A stretch of 64,000 bases of DNA, taken from contig JBHLOJ010000002.1 in NCBI GenBank assembly GCA_048940605.1, positions 17,742 to 81,741 of the forward strand, read 5' to 3'. The notes beneath the pieces were generated by a model. The model was not told where the DNA came from. It made no database searches and saw nothing but the letters and a program-made list of their open reading frames with translations. Positions 14,503 to 52,200 of this stretch are shown here, in pieces. Source of the stretch: Promethearchaeota archaeon (GTDB lineage: Archaea; Asgardarchaeota; Lokiarchaeia; Sigyniarchaeales; SOKP01). The translations under genes were made by a program, and so were the position numbers. Positions within the stretch are counted from its first letter, which is position 1, and the number at the start of each line of letters is the position of its first letter.

Positions 14503-15120
14503 ATGAATTCTTCAATTATCGATCAGTTCTTAAGTTCCAGTGAAATAAAAGAATTTGAAGATAGCATAATGAGGTGGTTAGTTGAGAATTTCAGCCCCCA
14601 AAAAGAAGGATTTGATTCTCAATCTGATACCAATATACTAAAAAATGAATTATCATATGTAGGTCAATTAGAAAACATTTTTTTAATCTTTATTGAGTCT
14701 GTAAGTGAAAAATATTCTACTGAATCTGCTAAACATCTGTATAATAAAACTGTGAAGACTATATTAAGTAATATTAAAATTTTTGAAATAAAGGATAATA
14801 TAAATTTGGAAGATATTACTAAATCGTTTTTAAGTGCATTTGACACTCTCAAACTCGATGATCCAGGGTTCTTTGGAAACCAGATCTCTTATCACCAGTT
14901 TCTCCCTGAAACATTTGATTATCTCAGCAATCAAATTGCTTTAGAGTTAATTTCTTCAGATTGGGTAGTTCCTAGTTTTTGGAGGGATGAAGTATTTAAA
15001 AAGATATTAGATATAGACGAGACTCGACAATTAAAGTTCGCAATAAAATCAATGATTTTATTCATAGAGCTAATCAAAGAACAGAAAAAAAGATTAGATG
15101 ATTTAAAAGTTAAGATCTAA
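14503..15120 (+). CDS. Hypothetical all-alpha protein, 205 aa, second gene of the operon
   Basis: Preceded by GAGGT at the optimal spacing. Its stop TAA (15118-15120) directly abuts the next ATG (15121). No family recognised. Confidence 0.6.
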   Translation: MNSSIIDQFLSSSEIKEFEDSIMRWLVENFSPQKEGFDSQSDTNILKNELSYVGQLENIFLIFIESVSEKYSTESAKHLYNKTVKTILSNIKIFEIKDNINLEDITKSFLSAFDTLKLDDPGFFGNQISYHQFLPETFDYLSNQIALELISSDWVVPSFWRDEVFKKILDIDETRQLKFAIKSMILFIELIKEQKKRLDDLKVKI

Positions 15121-16350: not shown

Positions 16351-18618
16351 TCAGGGAATAAAAGGGATTATAATCATTGATCTTTGCCTTATACTAAACT
16401 CTTCATTATCATCTGGAAAAAATGTATATTCCACCCAAATATCTTGACCCTGTAGCTCCAAAACTTCTATAAGAGAGTTAGTCTGTTGAAATGTATTTCC
16501 ATAACCATAGCCATAATTATGAGTTCTATATGTTTCATCGATAAAATCATGAAATGCAGACCATACCGTGCCTTCAGCACAATCTAATAGTGATATTTCA
16601 GCGTCATCAAAAAAACGAAAATTTGAAGTGTACACGACAAAGCAGTTATAGTTAAAGTTAACGTTTTCAAATCCAATATCTTGATCTAGATCCTCATATG
16701 AGACTGTATCTGTCCTGTAATCATAAAGAGTTTCAGGAGGTAACGGCATCAAGATTAATGATCTTTCCAATATGGTGAGTTTATCGTTAGTTACAGGATC
16801 ATAATCATATCCTCGTCCCATAAATCTTAATTCTACTACTAGATCAGTATTATCTAAAGAAAGTTTATCTGCGATTATCATAGTCCCTCTCATTATCATA
16901 TCACCTTGATAAGCGGGAAATTCCCATTGCCTTATAGTATGATCAAAAAGTCCGGAAGTATCTGCATCTGCAAAACGTACCCATCCATTACTGTGGACTC
17001 CATGCAAACTCCCTGGATCATCGGTAACTTGAAATGAAGCAGTATATATAGCTAGATACTCTCCCGTAAGATCATCAATACGAAGATCTTCGCGTATTGT
17101 ATTATCCTGCCATTCTGCAGATTCTGTGCTGCTGATATATGGACAATCTGGTGCTAATGGAATTGCGATTATTGATCTCTGTATTAGGGTAAATGTGACA
17201 CCATCGAAAAAATCTAGTTTGGCTCTTACTCCTCCGGCACCAAGTGTTACTCTATCTGCTACCACTATTGTACCATACATATCCTGGGAAATATCCTCAA
17301 AAAAGCGTTTCGTCCGAGCGATTTCTCCAGCATCAGTTACTAAAGTTACCCAACCATAACCCTCGACCATACTAAAAGCATAAAAATTAGCGGTATATAT
17401 AACAAGATACTCACCTGGAGTGCCAACGGAATTGATGGCAACATCTTCATCTTCCCAACTAAATGGAATATCATCCATTGTCCAATCAACCTCCTCTGAA
17501 CTTTGAGCGTAAAGGAATCCAGAAGGAGTTGTCTCAGTAGAATAACTGAGATAGAGTTGGTCAAATTCTAGAAGAAATACTCCTGTAGTTATTACTGTGG
17601 TTGAGAATCGTAATTTCACTTCATCATTTACACTGATATAAGTAGGACTTAAGCTAAAGCTGTCAATGATCCAATTTGTTCCTGGATTAGATTCTACCGT
17701 ATTCCAAGAGGTTGTATCGTAGTTCCATATTTGCATAGTGGTAGTAACATCGCTCGTTGCACGATAATCATAGTAGAGTGCATCAATTGAAGTCATATCA
17801 ACATCTGTAACATCCCACATCACTGTCCAATCATGTTTATAATTACCGTATTGTTGCTTTACATATACTTTCACATAGACGGTATTAATATCAACCCAAC
17901 CAGGATCATAAAATTCCATCCACGGGTATACATCAGCTACTTTGGCTTGTAGCCAAAATCCATCTAACTGGGATTGACTAAGCGATAATCCTGATTTTGT
18001 GTATGATTTCCATTGATAGCTAGTCCCTGTGGGAGTCCATGAGCCTGACGTACTCGCACTGGTATCTATATCTACGTAGGTCGATGTGGTAGATGCTTGC
18101 TCTTTTATATACGCCCAATAGACCAGTTTTGTTACGTATTCACCAGGGGCAAGTGAAAGCGAAGTAAACTTCCATTTATCACATTTACCTACACTATTTT
18201 CCCTAATATTTCCTCCATCTCCTTCTATAGGAAATTCATCAAGTTTACTCCAATGAGGGGGTCCATCTGCATTATTCCATTGAGTAAGAATATCTGCATT
18301 GGATTCTGAGCCTTGAATTCCAGGCTTGATATATCCTTTATAATATTCACCGCTAGTGGATCCATAACTCCCAGAGTTGACACTCATGGTATCTACGCCA
18401 TCTTCCAATAGATTGCCTGTATCACTTCCTGAACCATAAGGGCTAAAATTAAAGTCAGCCCATTGGGTAGGGGCTTCCTTAAGTCCAACATCACTCTCAT
18501 TTGGTATAGTCTCTAATTTTGGTTTAGAGATTGCAGGTATTGAAGATAAAAAAGTCAATGTTAACACTAGAAAAAGGATAATACTCAAATAGTTCCATTT
18601 TTTAACCTGTAATTTCAT
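16351..18618 (-). CDS. Secreted protein, 755 aa: signal peptide, two beta-sandwich-like domains, then three tandem ~125-138 aa repeats
   Basis: Signal peptide MKLQVKKWNYLSIILFLVLTLTFLSSIPAIS. The three C-terminal repeats (about 17146-17538, 16732-17145, 16354-16731) each contain GEYL(V/A)IYTA(N/S)F-like strands. Each ends in QRSIIAIPL, ERSLILMPL or QRSMIIIPF. Both the N-terminal domains and the repeat type recur in the giant ORF (see findings). Confidence 0.8.
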   Translation of the reverse strand: MKLQVKKWNYLSIILFLVLTLTFLSSIPAISKPKLETIPNESDVGLKEAPTQWADFNFSPYGSGSDTGNLLEDGVDTMSVNSGSYGSTSGEYYKGYIKPGIQGSESNADILTQWNNADGPPHWSKLDEFPIEGDGGNIRENSVGKCDKWKFTSLSLAPGEYVTKLVYWAYIKEQASTTSTYVDIDTSASTSGSWTPTGTSYQWKSYTKSGLSLSQSQLDGFWLQAKVADVYPWMEFYDPGWVDINTVYVKVYVKQQYGNYKHDWTVMWDVTDVDMTSIDALYYDYRATSDVTTTMQIWNYDTTSWNTVESNPGTNWIIDSFSLSPTYISVNDEVKLRFSTTVITTGVFLLEFDQLYLSYSTETTPSGFLYAQSSEEVDWTMDDIPFSWEDEDVAINSVGTPGEYLVIYTANFYAFSMVEGYGWVTLVTDAGEIARTKRFFEDISQDMYGTIVVADRVTLGAGGVRAKLDFFDGVTFTLIQRSIIAIPLAPDCPYISSTESAEWQDNTIREDLRIDDLTGEYLAIYTASFQVTDDPGSLHGVHSNGWVRFADADTSGLFDHTIRQWEFPAYQGDMIMRGTMIIADKLSLDNTDLVVELRFMGRGYDYDPVTNDKLTILERSLILMPLPPETLYDYRTDTVSYEDLDQDIGFENVNFNYNCFVVYTSNFRFFDDAEISLLDCAEGTVWSAFHDFIDETYRTHNYGYGYGNTFQQTNSLIEVLELQGQDIWVEYTFFPDDNEEFSIRQRSMIIIPFIP

Positions 18619-22215: not shown

Positions 22216-22436
22216 GGTATTCTCATTTATGTCTTTTTAGTTTAAATTGACTTCATCTATTTAATCACATCTAAAGACAGTGTGATAAAATAGATTTCAA
22301 TTCAGTAATAAGTTATAATCCTTTTTAAACCTTATAGAAAATCTTATAGAAATTCAGTCAGTCCAAAAATTTAATCCCATGGATTGCTGGTATAAATCAA
22401 AGAGTTAAAAAAATTTATTTAAAATTTATGGAATAG

Positions 22437-31017: not shown

Positions 31018-31299
31018 TATAATAAACTCTTCTTAAATTTTTGTGCTAAAAAAATTAGGTTTAGCAAGGGAAAAAATCTGTAAAAAATTCTGTATAATTT
31101 ACCCATATGCAAAAAAGTTTTTAAATGATGGCACGAATATATTTTTTTATTAAAGAGAAAAAAAATCACAGGTCTCACACTTTGATATTAATATGTGAAA
31201 AAACTGATCGTAAATTTTTTATTAAAAAATGTTGAAATTATCGATCTTTAATACATTTTAATATTGAATTTTAGAGATGAAAATAAAGTGATGTAAAAA

Positions 31300-34200
31300 A
31301 TGAGTAAAAGCACAAAAACTAAAAAAGAGTATGAGAGAGAGCTTTCAAAAATGATTCGTTCTCCTTCTGTGGATACTTCATTTGAAAAGGTAAAGATTAA
31401 TTATTCACTAGATAATTATAATCTGACTACTCTCGATAATGAGATAGATCAGATAAGATCTTCTGGATTGAAACAAACACAAGTTTCAGCAAAATATACC
31501 CAAAAATCAATAGAAAAAGTTGACAAAACGGATGAAATTACGAAACATCAAGATCTCCCAAAAGATCATTTACCTTCTTTGCAATTATTCAAAAACAAAG
31601 AAATTAAGATTACAGAAAAAAAAGAACCTCAAGGAAAATATCAATATTATTTTAGTTTTATAATCCTAGCCTTGATATTTTCAGCGCCGTCCATTCTCAG
31701 TTTTCTTATTCTTTTCTATTTAAATAATCCATTACAAGAATCTCTTTATGTTCTAATTCCTTTATATTTATTTTTATCAGTATTTTGTGCTTTTAAAGGG
31801 GCGTATTATTACTTCAACATAATCAAGAAACAGAGGAGACTTAAATTAGAATCCCGAAGATCAAAACCGAAGTTCCAAGAAGTGTTTAGTAGGTTAAGTT
31901 TAAAAGATAGTACACTTAAAGTTATCACTGTTTCTTTTTCCTTTTTACTGTTCTTTTGCGGGTATATGAACATCCTCTTTTTTTCTAATACTAAGGGAGA
32001 TATTTTACTATTAATCCTATTGGAAATTACCTATTATGTAATTTTTACCATCAACCACAATATTATGAAAGATAATGGAAGATCTCTACAACAATTATTC
32101 ATTGCTGCTAGCGTAGCAGGTACTTTCCTTGGAGCTCTCATACTCTTTGCCGTTAATAATTTAAAACCATTATTGGTTGTCTTTCCTGTGGTTATCTTTG
32201 TATCCTATTTAGTATATAAAAATATCCTTGTTAAGACAATTGTATTCCTTTGTTGTATCACAGGATTAGGTTTTTTTAGTCTTTTTATATATAACATAGT
32301 TAGCACCTATTTAGTTGATGTATTTACTACTAAGTTCCCATTCAAAGCTCCTATTTTTCTAGGTGGTTTCAATAACACTGTGCTATTTATCCTTACTTTT
32401 TTCATAGGATTAATAGTAATCTACTTAATGGTCCGTAAGAAATTTATTCAAGTTCTCCAATTCTTGCCATTAGTTGGTCTTTTGGGCAGTATTTGGATTT
32501 ATTATCATAATTTTTCTAGTAATAGGCTACCTGAAGATGTTTCAGCTCTATTTTTATTGATCCCTATCATTTTCTATTCTCTTTTTTTAGTCTTTATCTT
32601 TAAAAATCGTATTTTAGATCTTTTTGCTCAGTTTTTTATGTTAATATCATCTTTGAGTCTACCAATCATTCTAGCCATTTTAGCACTACAAGAAAATTAT
32701 GGTGATGCCCAGTTTTTAATACCTTTCTGGACGATTGTATTTTCTATTCTTGCGGTGTTATTCGCACCATTATATGAAGTAAAACCAAGGAGATCTTCAA
32801 CTCAAAAGCAAAATGGGATTTATGGGTTGAAATATCATGAAATTAAGTTCCCTCTTCTATGGACATTTACTCTTGGTCTTACCGTAAGCCTATGTTATGT
32901 TTTCATTATGATCCCCCAGTGGCAATTTATACCAGTACTAGGTATAATTTGTTCCATTCTCTTATTCACTATTAAAGCAAAATCTATCAAAGTAAAAGTA
33001 ATAAAATTACTACAAAAAAGAAAGTATAAATTATATAATATTAAAAATAAATCCACAGTTAAAACTCCTTATTTTGAGGATAAGCATGTTCGAATAGCAC
33101 TTTTAATGATTATTTTCCTTAATTTATATTCCTTAATTTTCTCTGTAAATTCGCTAGCATCGGTTAGCTCTCCAAATTTTGAGTTTGCAAGAGTTCCGCA
33201 AGAAAATGGGCTTAATCTCGCCTCTATTAATTATGGATCTCTAGAATATTCCTCCTCTCTCAACGATTTCGATGGAATGTCAATTAATGATAAATTTATT
33301 ATAAAATGTAAAGTATCTCTGGATTTTGGAGAGACTTCGCTTGTAAGAGTGCGCATAATTCCACAAGATGTACCATCAATAGAGGGATTTCGGATACTAA
33401 AATCTTATGAAATTTCTTCCAAGTATCTCACAGGTCCTAAAAAGGATTATGAGATAATTACTCAAATACCCTTAAATAAATTTGATTTGGCTCCTGGAAC
33501 TTATAAAGTTGAGGTTTATTATAGTGTACTAACTGGATTTGGGTGTCGTTCTTCGTCACCCCAAATATATGAGCTGATTCTTGTTAGGGATAATTTATAC
33601 GTAATCCCGACTGAGCCTTTCAATGAGCCAATTGAAGATGGGTTCCATTACAATTCAGTTTATACCTTTGAATATGAAATAAATGGAAAACTTTGCTGGA
33701 ATGTAATTTTTGATGGAAGAATTCAAAATTCTGCTCAGAGAACAGTTTCATTAGATAATCTCGAATTATTCATTGAAGAAAATGATCGGTATGTGAATAT
33801 TGCTAACATAAGCACCGATAGCAGAGGTAGATTTTATTACAACCACACTGTATTTGGTTCAATCGAAAAAAATCAAATGGTAAAAATAGAATCTTCCTGC
33901 AAAAGCGAATTCTATAATCCCTTATTTTATGAAGAATTTGGAGGTTTAGAGACCCCCATTTCTGATGAAAGGGTGTTTAGGGACGAAGACATGAATCTTT
34001 ATCCTGATTGGGACTATACCCTTTATGATTTTATTAAGGTTCTTACAAGCAGTTCAGAAGGAGCACCTCCTTCCTCTCTTGCGTTCATGGCTGAGTTTTC
34101 AGAATCTGAAGGTTCAACGACTACAGATATTATTAATAATTTAGAAGGCACAATTGAGGGTAATACAACATGGACTACTGCTGGAAAACGTGATTCTGCT

Positions 34201-37200
34201 CTTTCTTTCGATGGAGATGGTATTGTTTCTAGCAGTGGTGGAGGTAGTTCTGTAAGTAATTGGCATGCTGAATCTGATAGTGAGCAATCGATTACCAGCT
34301 CAAGTTATGTGGAAAAGCACACTTTAGATTTTATAGCTCCCGCAGAAGGCGATTATTTAATTATTGTAAGCTGTGAAGTGACTCCTGCAGTAACCGAGTA
34401 TTCGATAGGAGTTAGAGCTCAATTGGATGATACTACTACTATGATGGAAGCTTTATATGAAGGTGTGAATTCAAATCGAGACTATGAATATAAGTGCGAG
34501 TCAACAATGTACGTGGCAGAAAGTTTAGGAAGCGGTTCTCATTCAATTGATATAGATGCGAAACAGGAAGGCGGTACGGGGTATATTCGTTATGCCCGTA
34601 TTGTCGTATTACGGCTTGATGATTGGCTTGATAGCTCTGGGATGTATGAATATGCCGCAAATGAAGGAGCGATTTCTCTTGCCGGTTCCGAAGGTTCCTA
34701 TAGTGATGCAGTTTCCATAACCTTTACTCCCGATACAGCAGGAGATTATTTAGTATTAGCGAGCATGGAAATGTATTGTGGATATGCGGGCGATACCATT
34801 TGTGGACGAATTGATTATGATAGCGGTGCTGAATATCTCCCTGTAGATAATACTGAAGAAAGTTATGAAAATTATGTGACTTATGAATCCAAAGATACTA
34901 CCGATTGGCATTCATTTATGTGGGGTGGTATTGTCAATATGCCTACCAGTTCCAAGACCTTTAAAGTACAAGCCTGTAGAACGGGAGGTTCGAATGGGAA
35001 TGCTGATGTGAGAAAACGGAGGGTTATCGCTATTCGACTAGGGGCGATGGGTGATGACACCCAATCAACTGAAGATGCTTCAAATACGCCAACCACCAGT
35101 CAATGGGCAGATAAATCAACCATACAATTTACTCCTTCCTCTCAACAAGATTATTTTATCATCGGTGGAATGGTCATCAAGCCTGATTCAACCAGTTATC
35201 CTTCTCATGCCGAGGTAACCCATACCGTAGGTACAAGTACCGGTACAATCAGTGTAATGAATGTTGATTCGAAGGACTCTGGAAATCCTGCCGATTGTAT
35301 CCCAATGATGGGTATTGCTATTAAAGAACTGAACGCAGAATCCCAAACTTTTAAGACTCGATATGGGTATGCAGGGAGCAGCGGAACCACTTACGGAAAA
35401 GGAAGCTTTATCATAGCAGTTCCTTTAGGTAGTGGCGGAGAAAATGGTTCAACCTATGAAGATTTCGATTATGTGGATTGGAATGATGTACTGGATGATG
35501 ATCTCGATAATGTATTTGTAATTACAAGCTGGATTTATCCAACCTCATTTACGTCTAATGAAAGTGATAATGGAGTTAAAAATGTCTTTTTCTCGAAAGA
35601 AGGAATTATTGAATTGGGAGTAAATGAGACTGGATTTGTTGAAATTTTTCTGAGCACTAATTCTGTAGAAACTACTGCTTCATATGGGTTTCCAGGAGCT
35701 GTGGCCCTTCATACGTGGAACTATTTAGTTCTTCGCTTTAATGACAGTGGAAATGATGTTGATGTGCTTATTGGAGATACCTGGTGTAGAGAAGCCATAG
35801 GTGCAACCGCAGAACCGTGGGGTGGTGGCGGTGCTCTTAAAGAAGGTGGAAAACTTATTATTGGTGCTGAAATCTCCTCTTATCGTTCCTTTACAGGGAT
35901 TTTAGATGATATTTCAGTATTTAATAGCTCCATTTCAGACGCAGCAATAAAAAGTCATGCAGGTGGTCCGTTCCTTGCCATCGACGTTACCGTGTATAAA
36001 GAAGATAATCAAGTTGGTTGGACACCGATAACAGTTTCAGGGCAAACGATAAACGGGTATCTAAATTTTCAATGTAATAGTACCGGTAAACCTATCGATT
36101 TATTAGAATTTTACCTGACAGGCGAGCAACCAGATTTGCAGAATCCTACTCCTGAAGAGTGGAATCTTTTAACTTCATATAATTATCATGACGAATTGTA
36201 TTCTTTTGTCGAAGAAAGCAATAATCTTCCAGACAACTCTTCCTGGTATTTTATAGCGAAAGCAACGGATGATTTAGGGAATTTTGTGTATGATTATTAT
36301 AGTACCTATTTTAAGATTGATCATTTTGATGAGCTTATTAATTTCACCTATATTGATAAAGAAGGACGAATTAATCATAACTCTCAGATAGGTTTGAATA
36401 TTGATCATGACTACCAATGGCATTTTGATTCCTTAAGTTTATTTATTAACAGATCTGGAGATATTGATTTCTTATCTTCTTATAATTATACCGAACTGCT
36501 CTCTAATTATTGGTTAATCAATTTAGATTCGATATCAGGCTGGATAGATGATAATAATTTAACTGCTGGCAATTATGATATTAATTTTATTGTTGAAGTA
36601 AATCTTACCTATGGCTCTGAGTTTTCTTCCTATTATGTGAATTATACTTTGAATAACACGATTTTAGATATAAAAGGACCAGATATGGAATTGCTTACTG
36701 GTCCAACTTATACTTTCACTCCTGAAGCAACTTATGATAGTATAGAAAGTAATTTGCTGACCTTAGCAATTAACTCTACTGATAATGATTTTTGGTATGT
36801 AGATGTTGAATATAAATATACAACTCCTCTAACTGCTAATTGGATTAAATATGGTTCATTTATGGTTCAAAATTCTCGTGCAGATATAGTTCTTGATATT
36901 TCTGAGTTGGCAGATGATAATATCACTCTCCAGTTTACTGGTTTTGATCATTTGTCAAATAGCAAGGTATTATTAAACTCAACATATTGGTTTATTAAGG
37001 ATTTTAATAATCATGAAAAGTTTACCATAGAAGGTTTAAGCGATTCTTTATATGGTTTAAACTCAAATGATATGCTAGACTTGGAATTAAAAATAGTTCC
37101 AGAAGATAATGATATTAAAAAAGTCACTGTGAGCACTTGTTATGAAAGTTTTTCTCTTGAAAACATTTCATCAGAGCAAAATTACATTTACTTTACCGAT

Positions 37201-40200
37201 GATGGAGCTGTTGATATACAGTTTAATTCAACATATTACGATATATTCGGATCAGATTTTACAGAACTAGATATCTTAGTAGCATTATTTCAAGAGACAA
37301 CCGATAACATAGCGGTAACCTCTAAGATATATAGAATAATTGTAACATCAAAAGCCTTTTTGGATATCATACAAATCGCAGATGTGAATGTAAATATTTC
37401 AGGTGATACCAATAATATTTGGATGAACACCATAAGTACAGCAACTACATATAACAATAGTCACGGCGTCCCCTTTCTTTCAAATAATAATCCACCTGTT
37501 TTAAAAGTATATAATTCTCTAAATGAATTTATTACATCAATCTCTCTTTCTACCTATTTAGACGATCAAGATGAGGAAATTTATAACACATCTGATATAG
37601 AAATATCAAAAAATAAATTTAAAATAGAACTCCCTCAACCTCAATCTGGGGAAGTGTGTTCCATAGAAGAAGTTCTTGTAAATGGAACCTCATATTCATT
37701 TTCCTATTATATTGATATTGATGACAATGACCTATTTATTAAATTATTAACTTCAAAATCATTAGATGGTACATATGGTTCTTCTGCCCCTATTACAATA
37801 AAATATGGGATCTCAACAGGGGTGCGGAATTCAAATCATTTCGTTGGGAGTTATAATTTTACACTCTTACCTCAAGATAATTATACTTGTATTGCAGAAT
37901 TTTATGATATTTCATCGGCAATTTCTACTTTTTTTATTTCACAGCCTCTAACGATTGATTATCAAGGTCCACAAATCCATCCACAGTTTAGCACGAATGT
38001 TTCTATAAATCCCGAGTCTGGCTTTATCTCCTTTTTTATTTCAGATTTTTCAGGTATCTCTTCTTACTACTTTAATACCACTATTTCGGGTCATTGGGAT
38101 GTTATCGACAAGATCTATACATTCTACTTTAACGATACCTCAATAACAGAAGGTATAAAGAATGTTAAATTAATTTGTAATGATACATTAGGACAGATTT
38201 CAGAATATCCATTTGCAATATTTATTGACAAATCTCCCCCAGTTTTTAGTTATGTGCAGACGAATTATATTTATGGAAATGATTTACTTGAGATAAATGC
38301 AACCTTAACAGAAAGCTCAGAATATAGTATTACTATTGAATTTTTACATCTTTCATCTGATACCATTGCTCCTGATTTTGAATTGACAATAATTGAAATT
38401 GGGGAAGATCAATGGCATATTTTAATTGATACAAATTGGCTACAAAATGGGTATTATAATATTACTCTAATTGCCACTGATACTGCTGGTAACTTTAATA
38501 CATATGTCCTTGAGGACACTTATTTTGATAATTCATATCCCATAGTAGATTTAATAGAGGAGCATATTTATGTTGATAATGAGAGTATATTCAATTCCAC
38601 AATCATCGAGACCTTATATTTTAATGATCATGAATCTCTCACTATTTCTGCGTTTGATACGCTTTATGACGGTTTTGATTGGAGTCAAATAGATCAAACT
38701 ATTGCTGACCAACTTGGAATTGAAAATATAACAATGTATTATACTAAACCTTTAGCGTGGTGTAATATTAGTATTGCAGGATCACTGAATTATGAGCAAT
38801 TTTTGTACGAAATTACAGGATATGGAGATTCTAATGACGTCCAAGACATCAAAAACATTTATAGTATTACAATCGGAAACTACACAATAGATAAATTTAC
38901 AATTCTCCTTGATGGTACCTCATTACTATTATACATCGATTCCCAATATCGATATGCTCTTTCTTCGGCATTAACAGGGCAAATTTATGCTCAGTTCTAT
39001 GAACTAGTAGATGATGAGATTGCTTTACAATTCAATAACAATTCTAAAAATTGGGAATTGATATCTTCTGGCAATTATTTCAATATAACAGAATTTCTTT
39101 CACTTGAAGAGGGAGACCAATTTCTTTTTTGGTATGAAATTAAGGATGGTCTAGATAATATTCTCATATCCCATAAAATAACAGGTATATTTGATAACTC
39201 AATAGGACAAGATCCAATCGATCAAAACGTGTTCGAATGGTCATTAGGCACTAATTCCACAGGATCTGGGATTATGATTTTTGGTACTGAAGATTATCTT
39301 GATAGCACTATCCAACTAAATATATCTTCGGTGCTCCCAACTATTGCGGGAGATATCGATGTAGAGAGGATTATGATTTATGGATCTAACGATACTATTG
39401 TGTGGACTGATATTGGAAGAGCTTATTACTCTGGGGCAGAAAATATATGGAACTATTACTGGGATGGTGATTTATTAGAAACAATGCCTTCAGAAAATTA
39501 TACCCTAAAGGTGTATCTCTTTGATAGAGCTGGAAATTATTTAAATCAAACTCATACGGTAAAATTATACGATTATATTCAAATTCAATTAATAACTGAT
39601 TTAGTTTTTGGTCATATTTTTGAATATAATTCTTCAGCATTTTCCAATGAAAATGATATTGAAGGAATAATTGAAAATTATATCGGGTCTATAAATTTAT
39701 ATGATATTATCGCTCAATACTATAATCCTATTGAGAAGGAATGGATAAAATTACAGACTGATCCTGCAACTATTCTTTCTGATGGAAGTTATTCAATAAC
39801 TTGGGATATTAGCGATGATCCCTCACTTATTTCTTCAATGAATAATTTTTCTTATGACTATTTGCCTTTACAAGTAATATCCCCTCAAAATAATGATCTC
39901 TGGGGATCTTGGGGGATATTCTCAGACGCAGATGAATGGCAACCAATAATTATCTCGGAATCAGGGTCAAATTTGGATATTTCCGTATATACTTTTAATG
40001 AAGTTAGTGGGTGGGAACAAGATATTTCTTTAAGTAGTGAAGTAACGATATCATCAATTAATAATCAAGTCTTCAAGCTTTTTGATATTCATCGTGATGG
40101 AAAATGGGAGATTATTCGTATATCTTCATCTCAAATTGATGTGATCTATTTAAATCAAACTAGTTCTCAGTGGATTATTAAAGAAAATGTAACAGGTCTT

Positions 40201-43200
40201 TCGGGTTATACTTATTACTCATTTGATATCGAGTATGACGGTAGGGCATCTACAACCCTTATGTCCGTCCACCAAAAAGACTCTACATCTCAATCTAGTA
40301 TGTGGCTATATAGTTTTAATTTAGATTATACACTTACTAAAACTAAAGATTGTATTTGTCCCTTTAATTTTGAACCCACTTCTATTCGAATCGTAAATTA
40401 TTTTTCTGCTACCGATAGAAAAGCAATACTAGTAGCAGGAGAAATCTCAAGTTCACACTATTCTCAATTGATTGAATATGATTTTAATTTAGGCATAAAA
40501 AATATTATTGTTGATGTAATTTTAGGCAAGATTTCAGTAATAGAATATGATGAGATAAATGGAGCTGAGTCAATTGTCCTTGGTGTTGAACGCTTAATTA
40601 TTGGAAAAATGGATGCTGTAATCGCTTTAAGAAGAAAAACGGGAACTGAAGAATGGGTTGATTTTCAGGTCTCAGGCTTCGATGAACTCAAATTCCGAAT
40701 ACTGGATCTCCTGACAATCCATGAAAACAACATCAGAAAGTTAATCGTGGCTTCTGGACAGGGTTTGTATGAAACCAAAATTTCTTATTTTAAAGATCTC
40801 TCCACTATTTCAAGTCCCATATGTTTTACTACTGTCGTATACGCAAAACAGGATTTACAGCCAACTTATTATCCTCTTATCGTTCCTGAAAAGATACCAA
40901 TTTATATGGTTAACAAGATTACCTATAAACTTTCAGGAGATAATAATTGGTATGATCTAAACATTGATAAGTATCATAGTTCACGAACAGAAATACGTCT
41001 TGATTTAAATTCCATCTGGTCCAGCTTAGCTTATGTAAAAGTAGCCTATTCGTTTGAGTCGTTTGTTTCCGAAGAAAGGACTAGTATTGATCCTTCGTTT
41101 AAAAAACAAAGCGGTACATCAGACACTCAGACTATATCTGCTTCGGGACTGTTTTATTCAGATATTTCACTGCCTTTATTATGGTTAAATCCCGCAACTT
41201 CTTATAGTAGCCCTCTAGCAAACTGGAACTCGCTTCCTAATAGCTTAACTTATCAATATACCCCTGTTATATCGGGATTAGGATCTACTGCTATTTATCC
41301 CGATGTTAAATCTGAGTGGAGCTCTGAATATGTGATACCCGAATTAGAGAACTCCTTAATCTGTTATGGCGATACTTATGATTCTGGGATTCTAGCTCAA
41401 AACCTTAATGCAAAAGATGATTACCTTGGCGAAACCATGTTTGATGGAAGCTTTGAGGGAAACTACGTAGATGGTGTATGGATAAGCAACCCATTTATCT
41501 CAGAAGACTTCAATTTCTCTCAAATGTATTATTCTGAGATACATGAAGAATCAAGTCAGAATGGATTATACAAGTATTATCCTGGAGATGGACAGATGGT
41601 TCTAGTACAAAACGAATTGACTGATATCACACCTTATAACTCATCAGTATCTCTTATCTACGATTCGGGCGTACTCCCATCTACAATAACTCCTGAAAAT
41701 TTAAACGATACGCTCAATAACATAGGGTTTGATGATGGTAATTACCAGTACACTCAGGTAAACGATTCTAATTATTTAGTCTTGAGTAGCGCTAGTGGTT
41801 CTGGAGGGCATAGTTATAACGGGGAATTTTTGTTAGAAGATGGTTATAATGGAGACGATTTTTACTTTAGCTTCTATTCTACAAGTACTGAAATTTGCTA
41901 TTTAGATATTAATGATGATACATATGCTCTAGCTACAGAAATTAGTATTGATCGTCAATTAATTACAAATGTTAATTCTATCGGATTTGGGTTCGGTAAT
42001 ATATATGGTTGTAGTGCTAATGTATATTACTTTAAATTAGAGAGGATTTCTTCAAATACTCCTGCTGTTCAAGGTGCATCATTAAAAGAAATAGAGACCG
42101 TTCTCTCAAATTGGAGTCAGTATATAACTACAGAAAAAGAGGAGACTGGAGTTTTTGGTTTTGAGTTTACTTATAAATTACCTGTGATAAGTCGAGTCAG
42201 TTTAAAGGAAGTCCAAGTATCTTTCGACGCTTCTGTTTATTCGACTTCTTTCACAGAAGAATATCCCTTATCTCTTCAATTGTGGAATTTTGAGTATAAT
42301 AGGTGGGAATCACTTCCGATGGCACCTTTAGACGGTAGTAGTGAATACCGACCAGATGGTCTTGATATGGACTTTTGGGCATGGCATCCAGAGACACCTA
42401 ACTACAACGACGATAAATTCAGACCTAAATGGGGAACAACAAATTTAGACAACATTAACACTATCAGTTATGGGGATTGTTTCCCAAACACTGTCGATGG
42501 TGACGGCAATATTATTTTTGATAGTTCCGTTATCTCTGGAGCTAGTTTTTTGAAAGACGATGATTCAGGTCACCAAATTAACACGTTATATACTGATCAA
42601 GATTATAAGGTTCTATTTTATGATAGTGATTATAATGCAAACAAATTCCAATTAGGGAGTATTGTTCTCAATACTATTTCCCCAAATACAAAAATTGGAG
42701 TCCATTTCCCTGCTTATAATGACTCAACAAGCTTTCCCGCGTCTAGTGAATTTTATGCCAATTTTTTAAACGATTTACATGAACTTAGGATTCGTGTAAT
42801 AACAAAGCGTGAATCTGGTCAAACAGATGATGCTTATTTATGTATTGGTGATTTTAACACGTATGCGTTTACTAATACTAATTATTTAAACTATGATGAG
42901 TTTGAATCAAATGCCATTGGTACTGAGCATGTAAGTGAAAAAATAGATTTTACTCAGAATGGATTAGGACTTTATGGATATAGCGGATTTGAACTTAAAG
43001 ATCCTGAAAGGACCGAAAAATTTAGGGACAATTTTCAATCAACATTATGGACTTTATTCGGAACCTCTGAAGAAATCATACTTTTTGAGCAAGTTGTAAA
43101 TGACGCAACAATAGTACGTTCGCTTCATCCTTCTACAAATTATGATACTGAAGTTCTTTCAACCTATAAGTATTTATCTAGGACCAATCATGAGAGTGAC

Positions 43201-46200
43201 TCTGCCTTTATTTATTCTGGTACGCTTGTTCAAGGTACCGATGTATATGACACAAGGGAAGATGATGGGAACAATATGGGCATTATTTCAGAATCTTTTG
43301 GTACCTATGACAAAAGGACTAAAGTTAGGTATGACAATCTGGTTCCAGATAGAAAGACGTTTGATTTCTATTATGATATTAGTACTAGTGCTCTAGCACA
43401 CATCTCAATAAGCCTAGGAGATTATGATTCTCCAGTCCTTGAAATTGCATCAACCACTGGGTTACAAAGTTCTTTAATTGGTAGCTCCCGTATTGAAGAC
43501 AAGGAACCCAATCTTACATACATTTGGATTGAAACCAGCTCTATTTTTTATCATCAAGTAGATGTTGACTGGTTGGAATCATATGAAGTACCTGAAGAGA
43601 TTGAAACGTTTATCATAACAGAAGATTTTTCTAAATATCTTACCTTGGGGAGTAATGACGTCTGGGAGTTAGAAGCATCTCGTATTTATGGAGCTTCCCC
43701 AACTCTCTTTTTATATTCTACTGAATCTTTTGATATCGACACCATTACGTGGGAAGATCGTCCGTATACCCGTGCTTTGCTTTCATCAACATTCGCTTCA
43801 GGTTCTACATTCACTTTAGATTTAGGAGAAATAGAGACAACTGAACATTATTTTAAAATTGATACAATCCATTACGGTATTGATTATTCAAATCCAAAAG
43901 TTAAATACCAGTTAGCAAAAAAGCATCAAGAACCAGGATTACTCTATATGCAAACTAATGAATCAGAAAGTTTAAGTCTTAAAAGTCAGACATACTCAAA
44001 AAACATTACCGTTACTCCCAATGATCAAATAATAATAGAATTTAAGCCCAAAACATCCAATGAAATTAACTTTACCTTATATAGTAATGGTGAGGTCGTT
44101 CAAATATTCACATTGGTACCTCAAGGAAATAACGATTTTAGTTCTCAGTTTATAACACTTGAAACCGATGAAACTATTCAGTTTGACCAGTTAATGTTTT
44201 CTGGAATGCTAAATGATACAGATTACTTTCTGGTTAATTCAATTTCAGTTCTTGAAGGAGCAAGTATAATTGATACCCAATTATCCTCTTATGATTTTCT
44301 AGAAGAACCTCACAAACCTTATATCGAGACGGGCACACCCTTAACATCTTCTTGGTTTGGACATTTTAAAGATGGTCAATATTACAATATATCCTCTAAT
44401 CTAAAATCTACCTCACAGGAAGTATGTGTTGAATTTGAATTCAATGTACCAAAGTCTGAAACTCTGGATATGGAAAAAATGGGGATAGAATTAACAGGAT
44501 TTGCTAGTTCTGCTTCTTTAGAAGGTGCTACTTTTAAAATAAAAAATCTTGACAGTAGTCTTTATGAAAATATTGATTTTATTTTAACAGATTTAGATTC
44601 TTTTTCATTTTCAATCCCCGAAGATCAATTCTACAAATTAGACAATGGTAATTATTATACAATTTCCTTTAGGATCGAGTTAGAAACAAGTTCGGAATTT
44701 ATCGTTCATATTGACAACCTAAACATTTTTACTTACATGCCTTGGAGTGTTGAACATGACTTGTATCGAGCATCATTTGTTATAGAACCAGTAGGTACTG
44801 GTCAAAATCAGACAGATTATCTTTCTGTATTTGTAAATGATAATATTAACATTACTATTTATGACCATTTACTCGATTTTGGCGATAATGTTATATCATT
44901 TTATTATAATCCTAATGAACAAAAGTGGCATGGATACTTCTATAATAATACCTATAACGATTTTACCGACTTATTAAATATAACTGATAGTGAGTTTGAC
45001 ATACCAAAATTAAAGATAGAGGCACATTATGGTGATACGGATAAGGGAATTAGAGTAAAATCTCTCGAGTCTCAGTACTATACACAAATACGAGATGAAC
45101 AAGATTTTGCTAAATATAAATCTCTGATTGCAAGCTATAAAGCTATTGACAATCACGCTGATCTGCTAGAACTCGATGCGGAAGATGAATTCTTGACTTC
45201 CGAGAATGTATTTACTCAAATCTCTGCTGATGTTGACATTATTTATAGTTTTCATGATGAGATGGCTCATGAAAATATCTTTGAGTATGAATTACTCCCT
45301 ATATTTACTGCAAGCTCTTATGATAGTTTAGAAACATATATATACAATGAAACAGGCTTTATTATAGATTCTGCTACCGTTTTATCTGATTCTTATGCCA
45401 CTGATATCTCAGAAGGAGCGATAGCAACAGGTTCATTAATAGATCTTCAGGTTGATGATAGTTCTGATTGTATCTTTAAAACCGACTGGACCCAGAAAAG
45501 AGATCCCGACAGCGGAGATCTTAGCGTAGCTGCAGGATATTACGGTTATGGTGTTATAGATTCAGAAAATGATGATACTAATTGGGATATTCAAGAAGAT
45601 GATGACGAAGAACGACATTATCAAGTAAAGACAAGCGATTTGCGAGATGAATGGCTTATTGCAAGTGACGAATATCTTTTTTCCTTAGGTAGTTTTAGTC
45701 CAACAAATTTACCTGCTGACGTGGATGTTGAAATAAAGGTAAGATGGGATTTCTGGGATACATATGGGAATGATGAACAAGAAGAATACTCTCATATGAG
45801 AATTTATATAATGAACTGGGATACCTCTCAATATGAACAATTTGGTTCAGACATCCCAAATTCAGCTAATTACATTGAAAGGACTATAGATCTAAATTCT
45901 AGCGATTACTGGCAAGAGGTAGTATTTCCAAATTACTATTATAATGTAAAAGTCAAAATAGAGACTAAAGCAGTTGCTTCACCTAGTGCTCCAATGGCTC
46001 AAGTCTATATAGATTACTTATATGTTGATTTAAAAGGAGTAGGCCGAGATCCTGATACTTCATATGTCAATTTTAATGAATTTGACAATACTAACCTGCT
46101 AAATGGTCAAAATGATTTTTATCTTTATTTTAATGGTAAGACCAACTCATTTACCTCTAATTTGCGGATTGATGGTACTGTAGAACACACCTTTGATTCA

Positions 46201-49200
46201 ACTGATTATAGTTCTTTTAATGGTTATTTTGCAGATATTGATTCAATTAAGGTATTTATTGTTGGTGATACAGAGGGGATGGATGGTGAAACTTATGATA
46301 GAAGATTACTAATAGATTATCTGGCATTAAAATGGTTAAATCAGCCCGTAAATATTTCATTGAAAAATGATAAAAAAATAAATGTCACTTCATCATTATC
46401 CCATAAGCAACAAAATCAGACACCTATTGATTCTGGACTGTACGATGATCCATATTTTGGGATGAATAGTATTCATCTCACGCTTAAAAATACCATCCAG
46501 ACGCCAATCTTTGGTCGGGGGAATAATACTATCTGGGCAGATCTCGAGCTTTCAGATCTTGATCTTGACTTTAAAGTGTACCCAGATACTAATAAACCAT
46601 TAGAAAATAATAATATTGAAGGAAATGATGAAAGTAAATATGTTCCTGCTATATTAGGGAATTATTCGGAATATTCGACAAGCAGATTCCGCCGTAGCGC
46701 TGTAGATAATATACAGATCCCGCTCCTTACCCCTTTACAATTGGATTTCGGGCAAATTGACCTTGCTACGTATGAGAATAATATTCTGGAACTTGCCTTA
46801 GATCTTGATATTATTTTAGAGAACAGAGCTTCGAATTCAACGTGGAGTCTCCGATCTCGGTTATTGTATTATAACTACACTTCAGGATATTGGGAAGATT
46901 TTAAGGGAATGATATGGATGGAAAGTCAAGGTTATAATCGTGCTGTGTGGGACCCCGAAACGTTTTCAGATAATTTTATCGATTATTTACAAGATTTTAA
47001 TGCTTCAAATAATGTTATCCCAATACTAAATGATAATGATATCCATGTTAAGAATCCACTTACCATCAATAATCTTAACAACAATATTATAAAAGATGGT
47101 GTAATGAAATTAGCATTTATATCGTATATTATTCCGAGTAACATTTCAATTGATCCTGATTCCAATAATTTTGTATATGAAAGAATGAATCCTGAAGTTC
47201 CAATTGAAATTTCTCAAGAAGTTGGCGTTGTTGATTGTGTATTTATAGGCAATAGTCGGCAAATAATGTATCCCGAAGCTTCCTTAACAGCGAATCTTGA
47301 GCTCGATGAAAATTTTAGAGCCAACTTAAGCTTAATAGATAATATAGGAGAGATTGTAGCTGTAAAAGGAATTTTTACCGAGGATTCAGTAAATTATGAA
47401 TATCCAATCTATTATTATTGGATAACTCAGGAGAATGAACTTGCGTTTAATTCTCCTATGAAGTATCAATTTACGAATGTTTCCATTGAATATATACCCC
47501 AATTAAATCTAACCTATAATGCAAGTGATGGTTACTGGTATTTACCAGACAGTTTTGTTTCAGACGAAGTTAACTACACCAATCCTTTCTTTGTTAGTGA
47601 TTTATGGGTAAATAATACATATTATGGCACCTATATTCACCCAAGTATAAACGTATGGTATACTATTGATTCTAATGATTATGGTACATTTGTTGACTTC
47701 ACAAATACCACGCATCCCGATTCACTTGTAAAAGGAACCATACATTTTGGGAAAGTTGATGATACTACTATATATAGATTTTCTATAAAAGACGAGACTT
47801 TACTTAGATATGATATTTTAGCCAATTCCTCTGATTTTGTGGGTGGCACACTTCATTTAGAATTTAATTCAGGATTTAAAGATGTTATATATTCTGAATT
47901 ATCTCAAGTAACATGTGAAGATTATGCCCTCAAAATAAGCTTATATGAGTTAGGTATAGATACCAATGAACTTAGCTCTATTGGCACATTAGAAAAAGCC
48001 TTAGATACAAATTATTTAGGATTTCATTATTATGAACTTGATATTAGTTTTGATGAATATGATTATGACTTAGATAGAGAAGCAGATTTAGCAGAGATAC
48101 TCACTCAAGATTCTTCTTCTGACCTATATATCACATTAGAGGCCGTGATTAGCGAATGCTATATAGATGGTAATCTCTTCAAGGGAATGTTTGCCCATGA
48201 ATTGTTATATGCAAGTGTTGAAATAGATTCTCAACATTCTCTATACCATTATAATGAAGAATCGATTGAAGATCCTTATTTCACAATTCCTCAAAATAAC
48301 ATAATTTTAACTCAAGTAGATACATCAAATTATATATTCGAGTCAAAAGATCTAAAATACAATTATAATTTTGAAATTGATAATCTCTATGCTGGATCTG
48401 AGATCTTGCGTGAGCATATTGATTATATATTTGATTTGGATCAGAAATCTATAACCTTAATTGGTCAATATAAAGACTATAATGGGTATCTTTTTGCAGA
48501 TATTATATACAATGCATTTGAATGGCATGAGGGTATGATATCATCGTTAAATCCTGTTACTTTAACGTTTCAGTATGATTATGTGAAAAATATAACTAAA
48601 TTTATGGAACTAATTATCCAGTATTCCGAAATACCAGGATTTCAATATGATACTATTGACCTTAATTCTGGAAGGCTAAGGCTTAGTGATGAAACTAAAA
48701 GCTCATCATTATTAAAAACTTATCTTTACAATTATAGAGAAGATAGATGGGATGAGACTAACTTTGTATGCTATAACGATTATACAGGCACGAATACGTT
48801 TTCTTATATTGTTGATAGAAATTTCCTTATGTTTGAGAATTATTTTAATGAAACGGGAACTGGGGATTTTGAGGTAAAGATTATCTTTACAATAGAATGT
48901 GTTAGCGAAGAGTGCTTTTTATCTAAGGGAGAATTTTCAATTACATCAATTGGAGCAAATATGTACTATAGTACCCCTAAAACAGAAACAAAGGTAACTC
49001 CTGAAGTTATATTCGATGTTGATCTTACTGAATATTATACCTCTTCCGATATTTATTTAGAAGAAATTACACTTAATTTAGATTATTGCGGTGAGCTTGA
49101 ATTTGATGAAACGTTTATTTTCTCTCAATATGCCCTTCTTGAAGAAAGCTATAATGTGTATATCAGGAATCAATATTTTGATTTTGAAAAATTTTCTTTA

Positions 49201-52200
49201 AAAAACAATGAAATAACTCTTTCTCGTGAAGAAATTGATCATTTCATATATCATGATATTGAAAATAGTAAATATATCATTAAAATTAAATTAGAATATG
49301 ATTGGTCTTGTATTCTTGAATTGAATGTAGGATCCAAATCAAAACTAGACATTATTGCAACACTCACTTTAAACAAGTATGATCTTTTAATTTCATATTC
49401 ATTGTATGATACTACAAGAATTTCCGCCTGCGAGAACACAGTTCCATTCGAATTAACTGCAATTTATGGTCCAAATTATATCGAGGAAGGAAATGAAATT
49501 TTCGTCCTTGATGACGATGAAATTCCAGATATTGGTGTATTTGGAGGCTTTCTTAGAAGTACGGATACAAAACAACGTCTTATGCTACGACAGCAGTTAT
49601 ATTATAATTTCACTGAAAGTACTGAAGGTTTTCGTAATATTTTGTTAGATCAAGAATATACCGATGCTAATTTGCGATTTTTAGTTCCTTCAGGATATCT
49701 AGAGCTGCCAAATATAAGAGAAGAGAGTTTATTAAAAGTCCCTGAGCAATCTGCTTTTAATTTTACCAGCGGTACCCTAACAGCTTTTAATGATCTAGAA
49801 TCTATTGACAATAATTATACAACTATTGAAGCTGATTATACCTCTGGCTCCGGTTCTGATATAGTTATCCCTAATCAAGATATTACTACTGAGTGGTATG
49901 CTGTCCCCTCTGGGACTCATTATACCACCATAGATGAATATCCTTCTAAAACCTCATCTGATTATGTTTCTGGAGGAGGCGCCCCATATCCTCTGGTATT
50001 AGATAGCTATGAAATGTCGAATTTTACTCTTCCCCCAGGAGGAAAAATAACGAAGATTGAAGTGTATATTTACGGGAATAAATATTATTCTAATGATCCC
50101 GATATTGGGATTAGTTGGGATGATGGAGCGAGCTGGCCTACTAAAAAGTATGATGCTGATTACGAAAATGGGAATGATTTTAGATATGATTTTACAGGAC
50201 TAGATAAAAACCAAACAGATTTGAACGGACTTGCCATAAGTGCAGAGCCAAATCCTACTTTATATGGCTCTCCTCCACAATGGGGGCACTTTAAGATATA
50301 TACACTCTGGGTAAAAGTGTACTATAACCAAAGTTATAGTGATCTTGATGTTCAAATAGATATGGAAATTGATGATCCCCTTTGCTCTTCTGTAAATACC
50401 TTACGATATTCATATAAGACGAATGTGTCCCAAGTAGTCGAGATGGATATTTGGAATTGGGATAGCTCTCAATGGGATGAAATTGAAACCACAAATAATA
50501 ATGCATCATTTGATGATAATTCTTTTAAATTAGAAAGTCAATATATAAACTCTACAAATGGGGTGAGAATTCGATATCAAGCTATAGGCGCATCCCCTTT
50601 CGAACTATATTTAGATAGATTAGCTATAGATTATACCATTCAATCTCGTTTCTTAACAAACGATACATATTTCTCTCTTATTGGTGAACACGAGTCAAAG
50701 AGTGTAAAATTATATTATAATAATGGAACCGCAGATAATTTCGTAGCTAATATGACGCTCCATCCTTCATTACCGTGCGTATATGAATATACATGGACCG
50801 ACATCTCAGGTGATACGGGAGCTTCAACCGGAGATATTATAGAGCTTATGTTCTTTATAACTGACATTTTTAACAATAATGGCACCTACCGGTATAACTT
50901 TACAGCAGATTTTGATCTTCCTACCCCAGAAATTAGTTTAGGAAATGGGACAGAAGATTTTCAGACGAATACGGCTACTCCTTTAACAGAGTTAGCTTTT
51001 ATGAATCATGAAACATATCCATGCGTGGAAATGTACAGGATTATAGATAGAATATCAGGATTTGTAACAGAATGGTTTGAATTTGATTTGATTTTAATTG
51101 CAATTTTAGGGAATTTAAGTTATCTTTCAAATAATTTTTCCATTGAATATAAGGTAATCGATATTGCGGGAAATGAAAATATTACCTCAATTTATAATAG
51201 TAATTTTGAGTATATTTTATTCTCAAAAGAAAAGCCGATATCATTATCAGATAATAACATTGATCTAAATTCTTTAAATACAATTGACCGCGAAATAACA
51301 TTTACAGATAACAATCAGTTTAATCATGTGGATTATTTGGATGCCTATATTAACGGTTTTAGATACGGGACTGCTTATTTAGATAATGGATTTTACAAAC
51401 TTTCCTTTGGAAGTGAAAATTCTTATGAAACGCTGATTACTTACTCTGATTCTTTAATCTCTAGCAATATTTATTCCAATACTAACCCAATAAACCATGT
51501 CTCTTGGGAAGTAAGAAATTCAGATTTCTTCGGTGTAGTGAAACATGTACTTGTTGACGAGGATATCATAATAACCAATCCTTTAACATATAATACGGAT
51601 TCTACATTAGAAATTGATCATATTTATGACAGAGGATACATCCTACAAAATTACGCTCGTATAAGGGAAGCTTTCTATTATAATGCATCTTCAGAGAATG
51701 ATGATATCGTATACCTTGGTTTAATGATTGATTTCATTGTTGATAATGCAGGAGTTATAAGATTCCCAAATGAATCACGCGTGCATGACTTATATAATGA
51801 TCCATCCGAAGTTAAAGATGGTTTAATTTATTTCAATTATGACGCTTCTCCTTTCTATGATCAGTTCCAATTATCTAATGCTGATGGCTTTTTCATTAAT
51901 TTTACAATTCCTGATCTATATTATGAACACACCACATTAAAAAAGCTTACAATTAGCTTTCATGATTTTACAGGAAAGACATTTTCAAAGGTATATTGGG
52001 ATATTGATCTACGCAAGTATTTCTTAGAAAGCATCAAAGAACAATATGAAATTGAGATTCTCGGGCTTGGGAAAATGATGTCAATACCTTTATATATTGA
52101 CTTAAATGAATTAGCATTTTCAAATCCAGGAACTCCGTTTGATTTATCGTTATTAGAATCTATAATAATCACCATCTCAGATTCAGAGTTATGGCCAGGC

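Follow-up and report, generated by a model that had tools for sequence, protein, structure and literature searches.

A secreted Asgard archaeal protein with a nested beta-sandwich unit and a predicted single-chain TNF/C1q-like triple, and its relation to a neighbouring giant open reading frame

We analysed a 64,000-nucleotide stretch (the window) of contig JBHLOJ010000002.1 from a Promethearchaeota archaeon (assembly GCA_048940605.1), focusing on a normal-sized gene at 16351..18618 (mini) and a giant open reading frame (ORF) further along the window (giant). An earlier note on this DNA had described mini as a small assembly of the module types used in the giant. The gene itself was upheld as a 755-aa ORF with an ATG start on the minus strand. 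Its product comprises a signal peptide, a composite of two modules that we call A and B, and three C-terminal repeats, delimited in part with hidden Markov models (HMMs) and laid out as follows.

16351..18618, minus strand: the mini ORF in the ORF list, 755 aa plus stop, ATG start, encoding a secreted multi-module protein
18529..18618, minus strand: Sec-type signal peptide, residues 1-30, with a K-rich N-region and a hydrophobic helix
18355..18507, minus strand: N-terminal strands of sandwich domain B, residues 38-88, upstream of the nested module A
17854..18354, minus strand: module A, residues 89-255, nested in B, from an A-only HMM and a motif cluster
17530..17853, minus strand: rest of sandwich domain B, residues 256-363 (MQIWNYD...FDQLYLSY), module-B HMM 2e-52
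17149..17526, minus strand: TNF/C1q-like jelly-roll repeat 1, residues 365-490, from the repeat HMM (1.7e-36), the model and Foldseek
16735..17148, minus strand: TNF/C1q-like repeat 2, residues 491-628, repeat HMM 8e-42
16354..16734, minus strand: TNF/C1q-like repeat 3, residues 629-755, repeat HMM 9e-40

Mini is a real, conserved secreted protein of an Asgard archaeon. It is 100% identical to a 'hypothetical protein' from a Promethearchaeota metagenome-assembled genome (MAG; P0001), and relatives in protein searches share 43-70% identity with it across 22-43% of its length; relatives are known from Hermod-, Hod- and Promethearchaeota MAGs. The public annotation of P0001 (735 aa) places the start 20 codons after the ATG at 18618, so that most of the signal peptide (18559-18618) is lost. 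We prefer the longer start because the extra residues make a typical signal peptide, with the N-terminus MKLQVKKWNY, a hydrophobic stretch and a helix placed by AlphaFold2 (AF2) at residues 3-25, and because the longer N-terminus is also retained in the orthologue P0003. The C-terminal end, a final strand ...RSMIIIPFIP, is conserved in P0006, P0007, P0024 and P0025. Scans of the protein, of the insert in the giant described below and of the single repeats with Pfam, NCBIfam and PADLOC found nothing relevant and no catalytic domain was detected, while an Rfam scan of 12-32 kb returned nothing and no competing opposite-strand ORFs were seen.

Profile comparisons indicate that module A (~165 aa) is nested in a loop of the ~140-aa beta-sandwich B, and that this composite is present in both mini and the giant. 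To obtain a profile of B alone, an HMM of ~140 positions was made after residues ~89-255 (A) had been excised from mini, P0002, P0005, L003 and the giant. This HMM matched L011, a metagenomic relative of the giant, contiguously and at full length in two places (9.8e-21 and 9.1e-15, or 1.1e-14 and 1.3e-9 when the giant row was left out). On mini it matched in two pieces, HMM positions 1-38 and 24-140, lying ~160 aa apart, and it was split in the same manner on P0002 and P0005, with ~160 residues between the pieces. An A-only HMM matched mini 91-253 as well as P0003 and P0004 at 1e-92 to 1e-98, and in these last two proteins module A stands alone with no B match, followed by fn3 and other regions in P0003 and joined to an S8 peptidase in P0004. 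Since B is contiguous in L011 but split in mini, P0002 and P0005, and since A also occurs by itself, A is therefore the guest in a loop of B. Elsewhere the partners of A and of A-in-B units are S8 peptidase, fn3 and LamG-like regions. Module A carries invariant polar columns (N107, D109, T112, W114, H122, E128, D134, G136 and D147 in mini) that form the motif cluster N-x-D-x-x-T-x-W...H...E...D-x-G...D, which may be a candidate ligand or metal site, possibly in a loop region that depends on a ligand or metal. Neither A nor B had a match in Pfam, NCBIfam or PDB sequences, and a profile search of the A-in-B alignment against PDB sequences gave chance matches only; a sub-threshold GH114_assoc match was found on the B domain of the giant. 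The unit is rare, with five proteins in a search of 5.8 billion and one more locus among 185,579 GTDB species genomes, where it forms the end of a protein of 1,246 aa or more in a Promethearchaeia MAG.

The giant lies 12.7 kb from mini on the opposite strand, close to the 13 kb given before, and carries the following features.

31297..63999, plus strand: giant stop-free frame, first ATG at 31300, 10,901 aa in the window, open at the window end
34252..35430, plus strand: TNF/C1q-like triple of the giant (the insert), aa 986-1378, from the repeat HMM, AF2, Foldseek and free-standing homologues
35467..35949, plus strand: Laminin_G_3 domain (PF13385), aa 1391-1551, Pfam 34.3 bits against a cut-off of 27.6, profile positions 5-150
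49705..50646, plus strand: paralogous A-in-B unit, aa 6137-6450, from BLASTP (E 1e-18) and HMMs built without the giant

Its N-terminal region is hydrophobic, and we refer to the giant as a membrane-anchored ORF. The Laminin_G_3 domain was the only Pfam match above the gathering threshold in its first 10,000 aa, with Big_3_3 and Big_13 below threshold, and BLASTP at 1e-3 found no internal repeats. The giant resembles a chain of modules, most of them unique and unclassified.

The A-in-B unit is the link between the two genes. BLASTP aligned mini 38-363 with giant 6137-6450 (nt 49705-50646) at 25.7% identity (E 1e-18, 81.6 bits), whereas 200 shuffled mini segments reached at most 28.9 bits (mean 22.0, standard deviation 2.0), and an HMM of mini and four foreign homologues, from which the giant was excluded, matched giant 6147-6447 at 4.8e-23. 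The giant copy has the same nested layout, with the N-terminal strands of B at ~6137-6188, A at 6192-6343 and the rest of B at 6342-6447. The module-B HMM matched giant 6350-6448 at 2.6e-18; with HMMs built without the giant, B was found at 2.6e-17 and A alone at 2e-4, indicating that B is well kept and A barely so. This match was the sole similarity between different ORFs of the window (at least 150 aa, BLASTP E<=1e-3), and an HMM search found no significant further copy of A or B in the giant or in other window ORFs. The collinearity proposed in the earlier note therefore held against shuffled controls and by an independent HMM, although the similar stretch begins ~70 residues before the start given there. 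The shared motif strings that the note listed are present, but their spacing contained small errors; the real strings are VTKLVY/ITKIEVY and GLSLSQSQLDG/GLDKNQTDLNG. The giant copy is 24-26% identical to every member of the mini subfamily, whereas those members share 38-80% with mini across genomes. The giant copy is therefore an old paralogue, with no recent local transfer.

We then consider the two triples. An AF2 model of the insert, computed with 14 sequences, had a predicted local distance difference test score (pLDDT) of 90.8 and a predicted template modelling score (pTM) of 0.92. Its top Foldseek match in the PDB was the engineered single-chain APRIL-BAFF-BAFF 4zch (E 1.7e-12 to 3.5e-12, template modelling score (TM) 0.52-0.59), and the single-chain C1q globular head 5hzf was matched as well (E 3e-11, TM 0.57). 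For the mini model (pLDDT 71.9, C-terminal blocks mostly 70-92), 4zch was the only compact PDB match (E 6e-5, TM 0.48 normalised to the target, 419 columns). In BFVD, phage and giant-virus proteins of ~400 aa were matched from end to end (TM 0.59-0.67 normalised to the target, 412-474 columns), among them A0A6J5RA88, A0A6J5LW36 ('C1q domain-containing protein', TM 0.59) and A0A3G5A5X5, at ~9% sequence identity to the mini triple. Other high-ranking matches of mini (Cry protoxins, GH101, reelin, tail proteins) had a TM of ~0.1, indicating generic sandwich content only. On these predicted models, we read both triples as natural one-chain TNF/C1q-like trimers. The structural agreement that the earlier note had expected was thus seen at the level of predicted models, both of which match 4zch, and the modules that it had called uncharacterised beta-sandwiches can now be described as TNF/C1q-like jelly rolls in a single-chain pseudo-trimer. 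We do not claim membership in the TNF or C1q sequence families, as no sequence model matched: neither TNF (PF00229) nor C1q (PF00386) was matched in Pfam, whether the entire proteins (E<=1) or the six repeats one by one (E<=10) were scanned, profiles of the insert family and of the mini triple drew chance matches only and no TNF or C1q chain from PDB sequences, and hhalign against TNF-alpha and adiponectin sequences gave P ~0.1-0.4.

At the sequence level, repeat HMMs delimited three tandem repeats of ~125-140 aa in each protein (mini 365-490/491-628/629-755; giant 986-1109/1114-1250/1251-1378). All six repeats carry the strand landmarks G-(E/D)-Y-L-hydrophobic-I and a terminal strand of the R/K-x-h-I-A-I-(P/R)-L type. 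Pairwise identity among repeats is 25-33% in mini and 17-20% in the giant, and hhalign related the repeats within each family at P 5e-20 to 7e-30 (mini family) and 6e-8 to 4e-13 (insert family). Between the families, BLASTP of one triple against the other found no match, the repeat HMMs of either triple did not cross-match the other gene, and a HMMER search of 1.84 billion representative proteins with the mini-type triple returned 11 proteins, none from the insert family. Three-sequence profiles of the two triples, which are shallow, gave P 0.015-0.017 in hhalign. In a position-specific 3x3 comparison all nine P values were at least 0.009, with no r1-r1, r2-r2, r3-r3 pattern. Pooled repeat profiles (21 vs 39 repeats) aligned in register over 105 columns with a score of 31.0 (P 1.1e-4, probability 57%); the highest scores of the shuffled controls were 16.7 (40 column shuffles) and 26.7 (40 block shuffles). 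By these comparisons the mini and giant triples form two separate families. The far closer relation of repeats within than between families suggests that each family was most likely triplicated independently, from jelly rolls whose kinship is distant at best. Of the second correspondence drawn in the earlier note, the triplicated layout, the terminal strand and the predicted fold were borne out, but direct sequence similarity was not, and the repeat HMMs delimited each triple without any cross-match between them.

The insert occupies a defined slot in the giant. It is set between ...ALSFDGDG (ending at nt 34221) and DYVDWNDV..., where the LamG domain starts, with Gly/Ser linkers on both sides. 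When it was spliced out in silico, the Laminin_G_3 match grew to profile positions 1-150 and 37.9 bits, a gain of only 0.8 bit; the triple lies at the N-terminal edge of the LamG domain, and true nesting appears plausible. This triple is found at an unchanged position in three metagenomic orthologues of the giant (L008-L010, 74-81% identical). In the more distant orthologue L011 (37-48%), a B-type domain replaces the triple at the junction of FDG and DY(V/D)W, and an extra B-type domain lies ~80 residues upstream of the slot, where the window giant has almost nothing. The finding of a triple in L008-L010 and a B-type domain in L011 at one slot indicates whole-domain replacement at a fixed junction. 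As judged from these alignments, module shuffling is lineage-wide and not local. The shuffling proposed in the earlier note therefore stands as recombination among proteins, as seen in the partners of A, of A-in-B and of the triples and in the L011 slot, but not as exchange between these two genes; its local pool finds no support, with the giant's A-in-B unit an old paralogue (24-26%) and the triples in different families that have closer relatives elsewhere.

Base composition was also examined at the slot. GC is raised from 33.9 to 36.1 kb, a stretch that takes in the LamG domain, and most of the increase falls at codon positions 1 and 2. GC at third codon positions (GC3) is modestly raised there (0.306 vs 0.24 +/- 0.03), and the second half of the insert (34897-35496) has the highest GC3, 0.34, of 54 in-frame 600-nt bins of the giant (mean 0.24, standard deviation 0.03). 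We mostly rejected GC as evidence of a foreign insert, as the rise covers LamG too and is largely an amino-acid effect; the composition of the insert hints only weakly at a foreign origin or at incomplete amelioration.

The two triple families differ in their relatives. The mini-type triple follows a signal peptide and fn3 (P0006, P0007) or LamG-like arrays (P0024, P0025), usually at the protein C-terminus, and where a source is named, its members are from Prometh-, Hermod- and Hodarchaeota MAGs. The modules of mini were found only in metagenomes and Asgard MAGs, with no PHROG match, none in GenBank phages by tblastn and none in an IMG/VR scan with the triple family. One member, P0025 (1,446 aa; L006/L007), sits between a SIR2_2-TPR protein and a 1,010-aa TIR_2 protein, a defence-island-like neighbourhood. 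The two relatives' contexts examined had no gene neighbour in common, either with each other or with the window. The insert, in turn, shares 43-53% identity with proteins that stand free, many of them ~420 aa long (at loci including L001 and L002); several of these have their own Met exactly where the insert begins. Of the four insert-family contexts examined, two include tail genes of tailed viruses. The 53-kb contig of P0009 has a tape-measure gene (phrog_58, 2e-18) upstream of it and also encodes primase, PCNA and ERCC4, and P0017 is preceded by a Neck1/tail-completion gene (5e-21). The other two are co-directional ORFan blocks with no PHROG matches. The insert family itself had no PHROG match and none in GenBank phages (tblastn) or IMG/VR. 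After its triple, P0009 (L002 5987-7954) runs on into a fibre-like tail made of numerous ~14-aa tandem repeats (LNSNARIKTEESIT-like), which the giant copy lacks; P0011, P0012, P0013 and P0019 carry YKD(V/I)PLK(I/V)S(I/V)ES repeats instead.

Just past the 3' end of mini, the window encodes a Schlafen/AlbA_2-domain protein (11291-12841, minus strand), a 205-aa ORF with a weak Phage_int_SAM_5 match (14503-15120, plus strand), a 389-aa ORFan directly after it (15121-16290, plus strand) and a 247-aa ORFan, and the segment 11291-16290 may be mobile or island-like. Pfam found no virion-gene family in ten neighbouring ORFs of mini. On the other side lies a secreted-enzyme-like neighbourhood (20410-27458, minus strand) with an S8 subtilase carrying Big_7 (20410-22215) and a 1,518-aa right-handed beta-helix/NosD-like protein (22902-27458).

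Taken together, mini is probably a secreted, non-enzymatic binding protein of the adhesin or lectin type, built from an A-in-B unit and a one-chain TNF/C1q-like triple, with an old paralogue of the A-in-B unit in the giant and separate triplications in the two genes. We propose the adhesin or lectin type because the signal peptide, the sandwiches and the TNF/C1q-like head resemble C1q, TNF ligands and Pam3 gp24. The C-terminal pseudo-trimer would present three non-identical inter-domain grooves as a ligand-binding tip, to be used as in TNF/C1q heads and phage receptor-binding knobs without the need to trimerise, and A-in-B might act as a stalk or as a second binding module, possibly for glycan or Ca2+. 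Both genes would draw on an Asgard-wide repertoire of surface modules, which are recombined through fusion or through insertion into the loops or edges of other sandwich domains.

Several points weigh against this reading. Ligand binding or adhesion would be the most likely function of mini, yet we infer it wholly by analogy. The pTM of the mini model, 0.53, denotes moderate confidence, and the most conserved part of module A (residues 107-144; 18187-18300, minus strand), which holds much of its invariant polar cluster, was modelled at pLDDT <50. The sameness of fold suggested for the mini and insert triples rests on shared library matches of predicted models and not on direct superposition, and the pooled-profile signal (P 1e-4) gives some likelihood to a distant homology of the two triples. 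No recognisable cell-anchor was found in the mini protein, and its neighbours, one weakly integrase-like and one of the Schlafen/AlbA_2 type, lend a low probability to a mobile-element or virus-related role.

Taken literally, the earlier note implies that mini and the giant swap modules from a local pool and that both correspondences reflect recent cassette transfer. In its favour, the genes are 12.7 kb apart, the A-in-B match is the sole similarity between ORFs of the window, and the triples are of one predicted fold. However, the mini unit is 38-80% identical to units in other genomes and only 25.7% to the giant copy, the triples do not cross-match by BLASTP or HMMER and each has much closer relatives elsewhere, and orthologous giants of 74-81% identity already have the giant triple in its present position, so that we consider local exchange highly improbable. 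It appears less improbable, though still unlikely, that both triples descend from a single ancestral one-chain triple, which was placed as a common cassette in the two gene types, and that they have since become hard to recognise as homologues. The in-register pooled profiles over 105 columns (P 1.1e-4), which scored above all 80 shuffled controls, speak for a common ancestor, as do the agreement in strand landmarks and repeat number and the matching of 4zch by both models (the top PDB match for the insert, the only compact one for mini). The 3x3 comparison, however, showed no positional orthology (all P >= 0.009), and repeats were far closer within families (P 1e-8 to 1e-30), the opposite of what common descent would give unless evolution was concerted; a TNF-like trimer can, moreover, turn single-chain by triplication on more than one occasion.

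Two further explanations concern the role of mini itself. That mini derives from a virus or mobile element, for example as the receptor-binding protein of an integrated element, is suggested by its best compact structural matches, which are ~400-aa phage and giant-virus proteins, by the weak Phage_int_SAM_5 (14503-15120) and Schlafen/AlbA_2 (11291-12841) neighbours, and by the island-like position of P0025 between SIR2-TPR and TIR proteins. We judge this derivation improbable: mini carries a Sec-type signal peptide, its family is fused to signal peptides, fn3 and LamG arrays, all members with a named source are from Asgard MAGs, no match was found in PHROG, GenBank phages or IMG/VR, and no virion family was found by Pfam in the ten neighbours. 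Alternatively, A-in-B and the triple could be accessory carbohydrate-binding modules (CBMs), with mini targeting a substrate for the S8 peptidase (20410-22215) and the beta-helix protein (22902-27458), both less than 10 kb away. CBM-rich enzymes and Cry protoxins are the top low-TM Foldseek matches of mini, module A is fused to an S8 peptidase in the Promethearchaeota protein P0004, and the B domain of the giant has the sub-threshold GH114_assoc match. At TM 0.07-0.13 the resemblance is that of generic sandwiches only, no neighbour is conserved across the family contexts examined and no CBM family was matched by sequence, which leaves this partnership doubtful in our view. A secreted binding protein with a one-chain head remains our preferred reading of mini.

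The viral contexts of the insert family suggest a more speculative idea, which we put forward only tentatively: that Asgard archaea and their tailed viruses both employ a natural, asymmetric TNF/C1q-like head made of a single chain, each from its own side of the cell surface, and that the giant took up (or donated) a complete virus tail-fibre head into the swappable slot at the LamG edge, which in L011 holds a B-type module like that of mini. If this is true, cassette slots would make the giant a scaffold for diversifying binding specificity, which might serve as a decoy or counter-receptor when virus and host are in conflict. The homologues of the insert tie one module of a surface protein of more than 10,900 aa to proteins of virus tail clusters, which offers a testable hypothesis of virus-host recognition in the lineage closest to eukaryotes.

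The TNF/C1q-like fold is already known; what is new here is the natural single-chain TNF/C1q-like triple, as predicted, and the nested A-in-B unit in secreted and giant Asgard proteins. The one-chain head would give a structural identity to 'hypothetical' Asgard surface proteins, which is of interest as the matched single-chain solved structures are engineered and the natural ones in BFVD are uncharacterised. The two genes also illustrate how secreted and giant proteins are assembled in these archaea: modules are fused to one another or nested within other domains (A in B; a triple or B at the LamG edge). The origin of eukaryotic TNF or C1q is not addressed, because no sequence-level relationship was found.

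We finally compared these proteins with known systems. In a literature search for Asgard TNF-like proteins or natural pseudo-trimeric C1q/TNF proteins, we found the architecture not described, and only homotrimeric phage examples. The closest structural parallels are the engineered single-chain forms 4zch (scAPRIL-BAFF-BAFF) and 5hzf (gC1q A-B-C), with which both triples share the jelly roll of ten strands and ~125-140 aa, the predicted grouping of three copies about a threefold axis, a final C-terminal strand that is hydrophobic and a G-x-Y-L-I-type strand. TNF-alpha likewise has an EGLYLIYSQV strand and ends ...YFGIIAL. Unlike in the engineered forms, the single chain is natural here and its three copies have diverged to 17-33% identity; unlike in the TNF/C1q superfamily, the source is archaeal or viral and not metazoan, and there is no collagen or transmembrane stalk.

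Among viral proteins, cyanophage Pam3 gp24 has a homotrimeric TNF-like receptor-binding domain in its tail fibre (PMC9608196), and TNF-like jelly-roll proteins have been annotated in archaeal viruses (bioRxiv 10.1101/2025.02.15.638363). In phage TNF-like fibres the jelly roll is the distal host-recognition module, and in two of the four contexts examined members of the insert family lie towards the distal end of tail gene clusters. The phage homotrimers have one domain per chain, whereas three domains per chain here would give an intrinsically asymmetric head, and the mini family, unlike the fibres, belongs to cells and combines its triple with a signal peptide and with fn3 or LamG modules. 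The ~400-aa viral proteins of BFVD, uncharacterised and known as predicted structures, are natural one-chain triples with the fold of the C-terminal 390 residues of mini, but they lack both an A-in-B fusion and a signal peptide. The turret protein of Sulfolobus turreted icosahedral virus, an archaeal virus (4ind, 3j31_P), also has three jelly rolls in a single chain; both models matched it, yet at a low TM of 0.20-0.24, and its arrangement is that of a penton or turret base and not of a compact TNF-like trimer. A, B and both triple families have no match in Pfam, NCBIfam or PDB sequences, but they share with nested LamG/ConA-like and CBM-containing surface proteins and with giant prokaryotic surface proteins the general plan of all-beta modules strung together or nested within one another in very large secreted proteins, and a Laminin_G_3 domain directly adjoins the insert.

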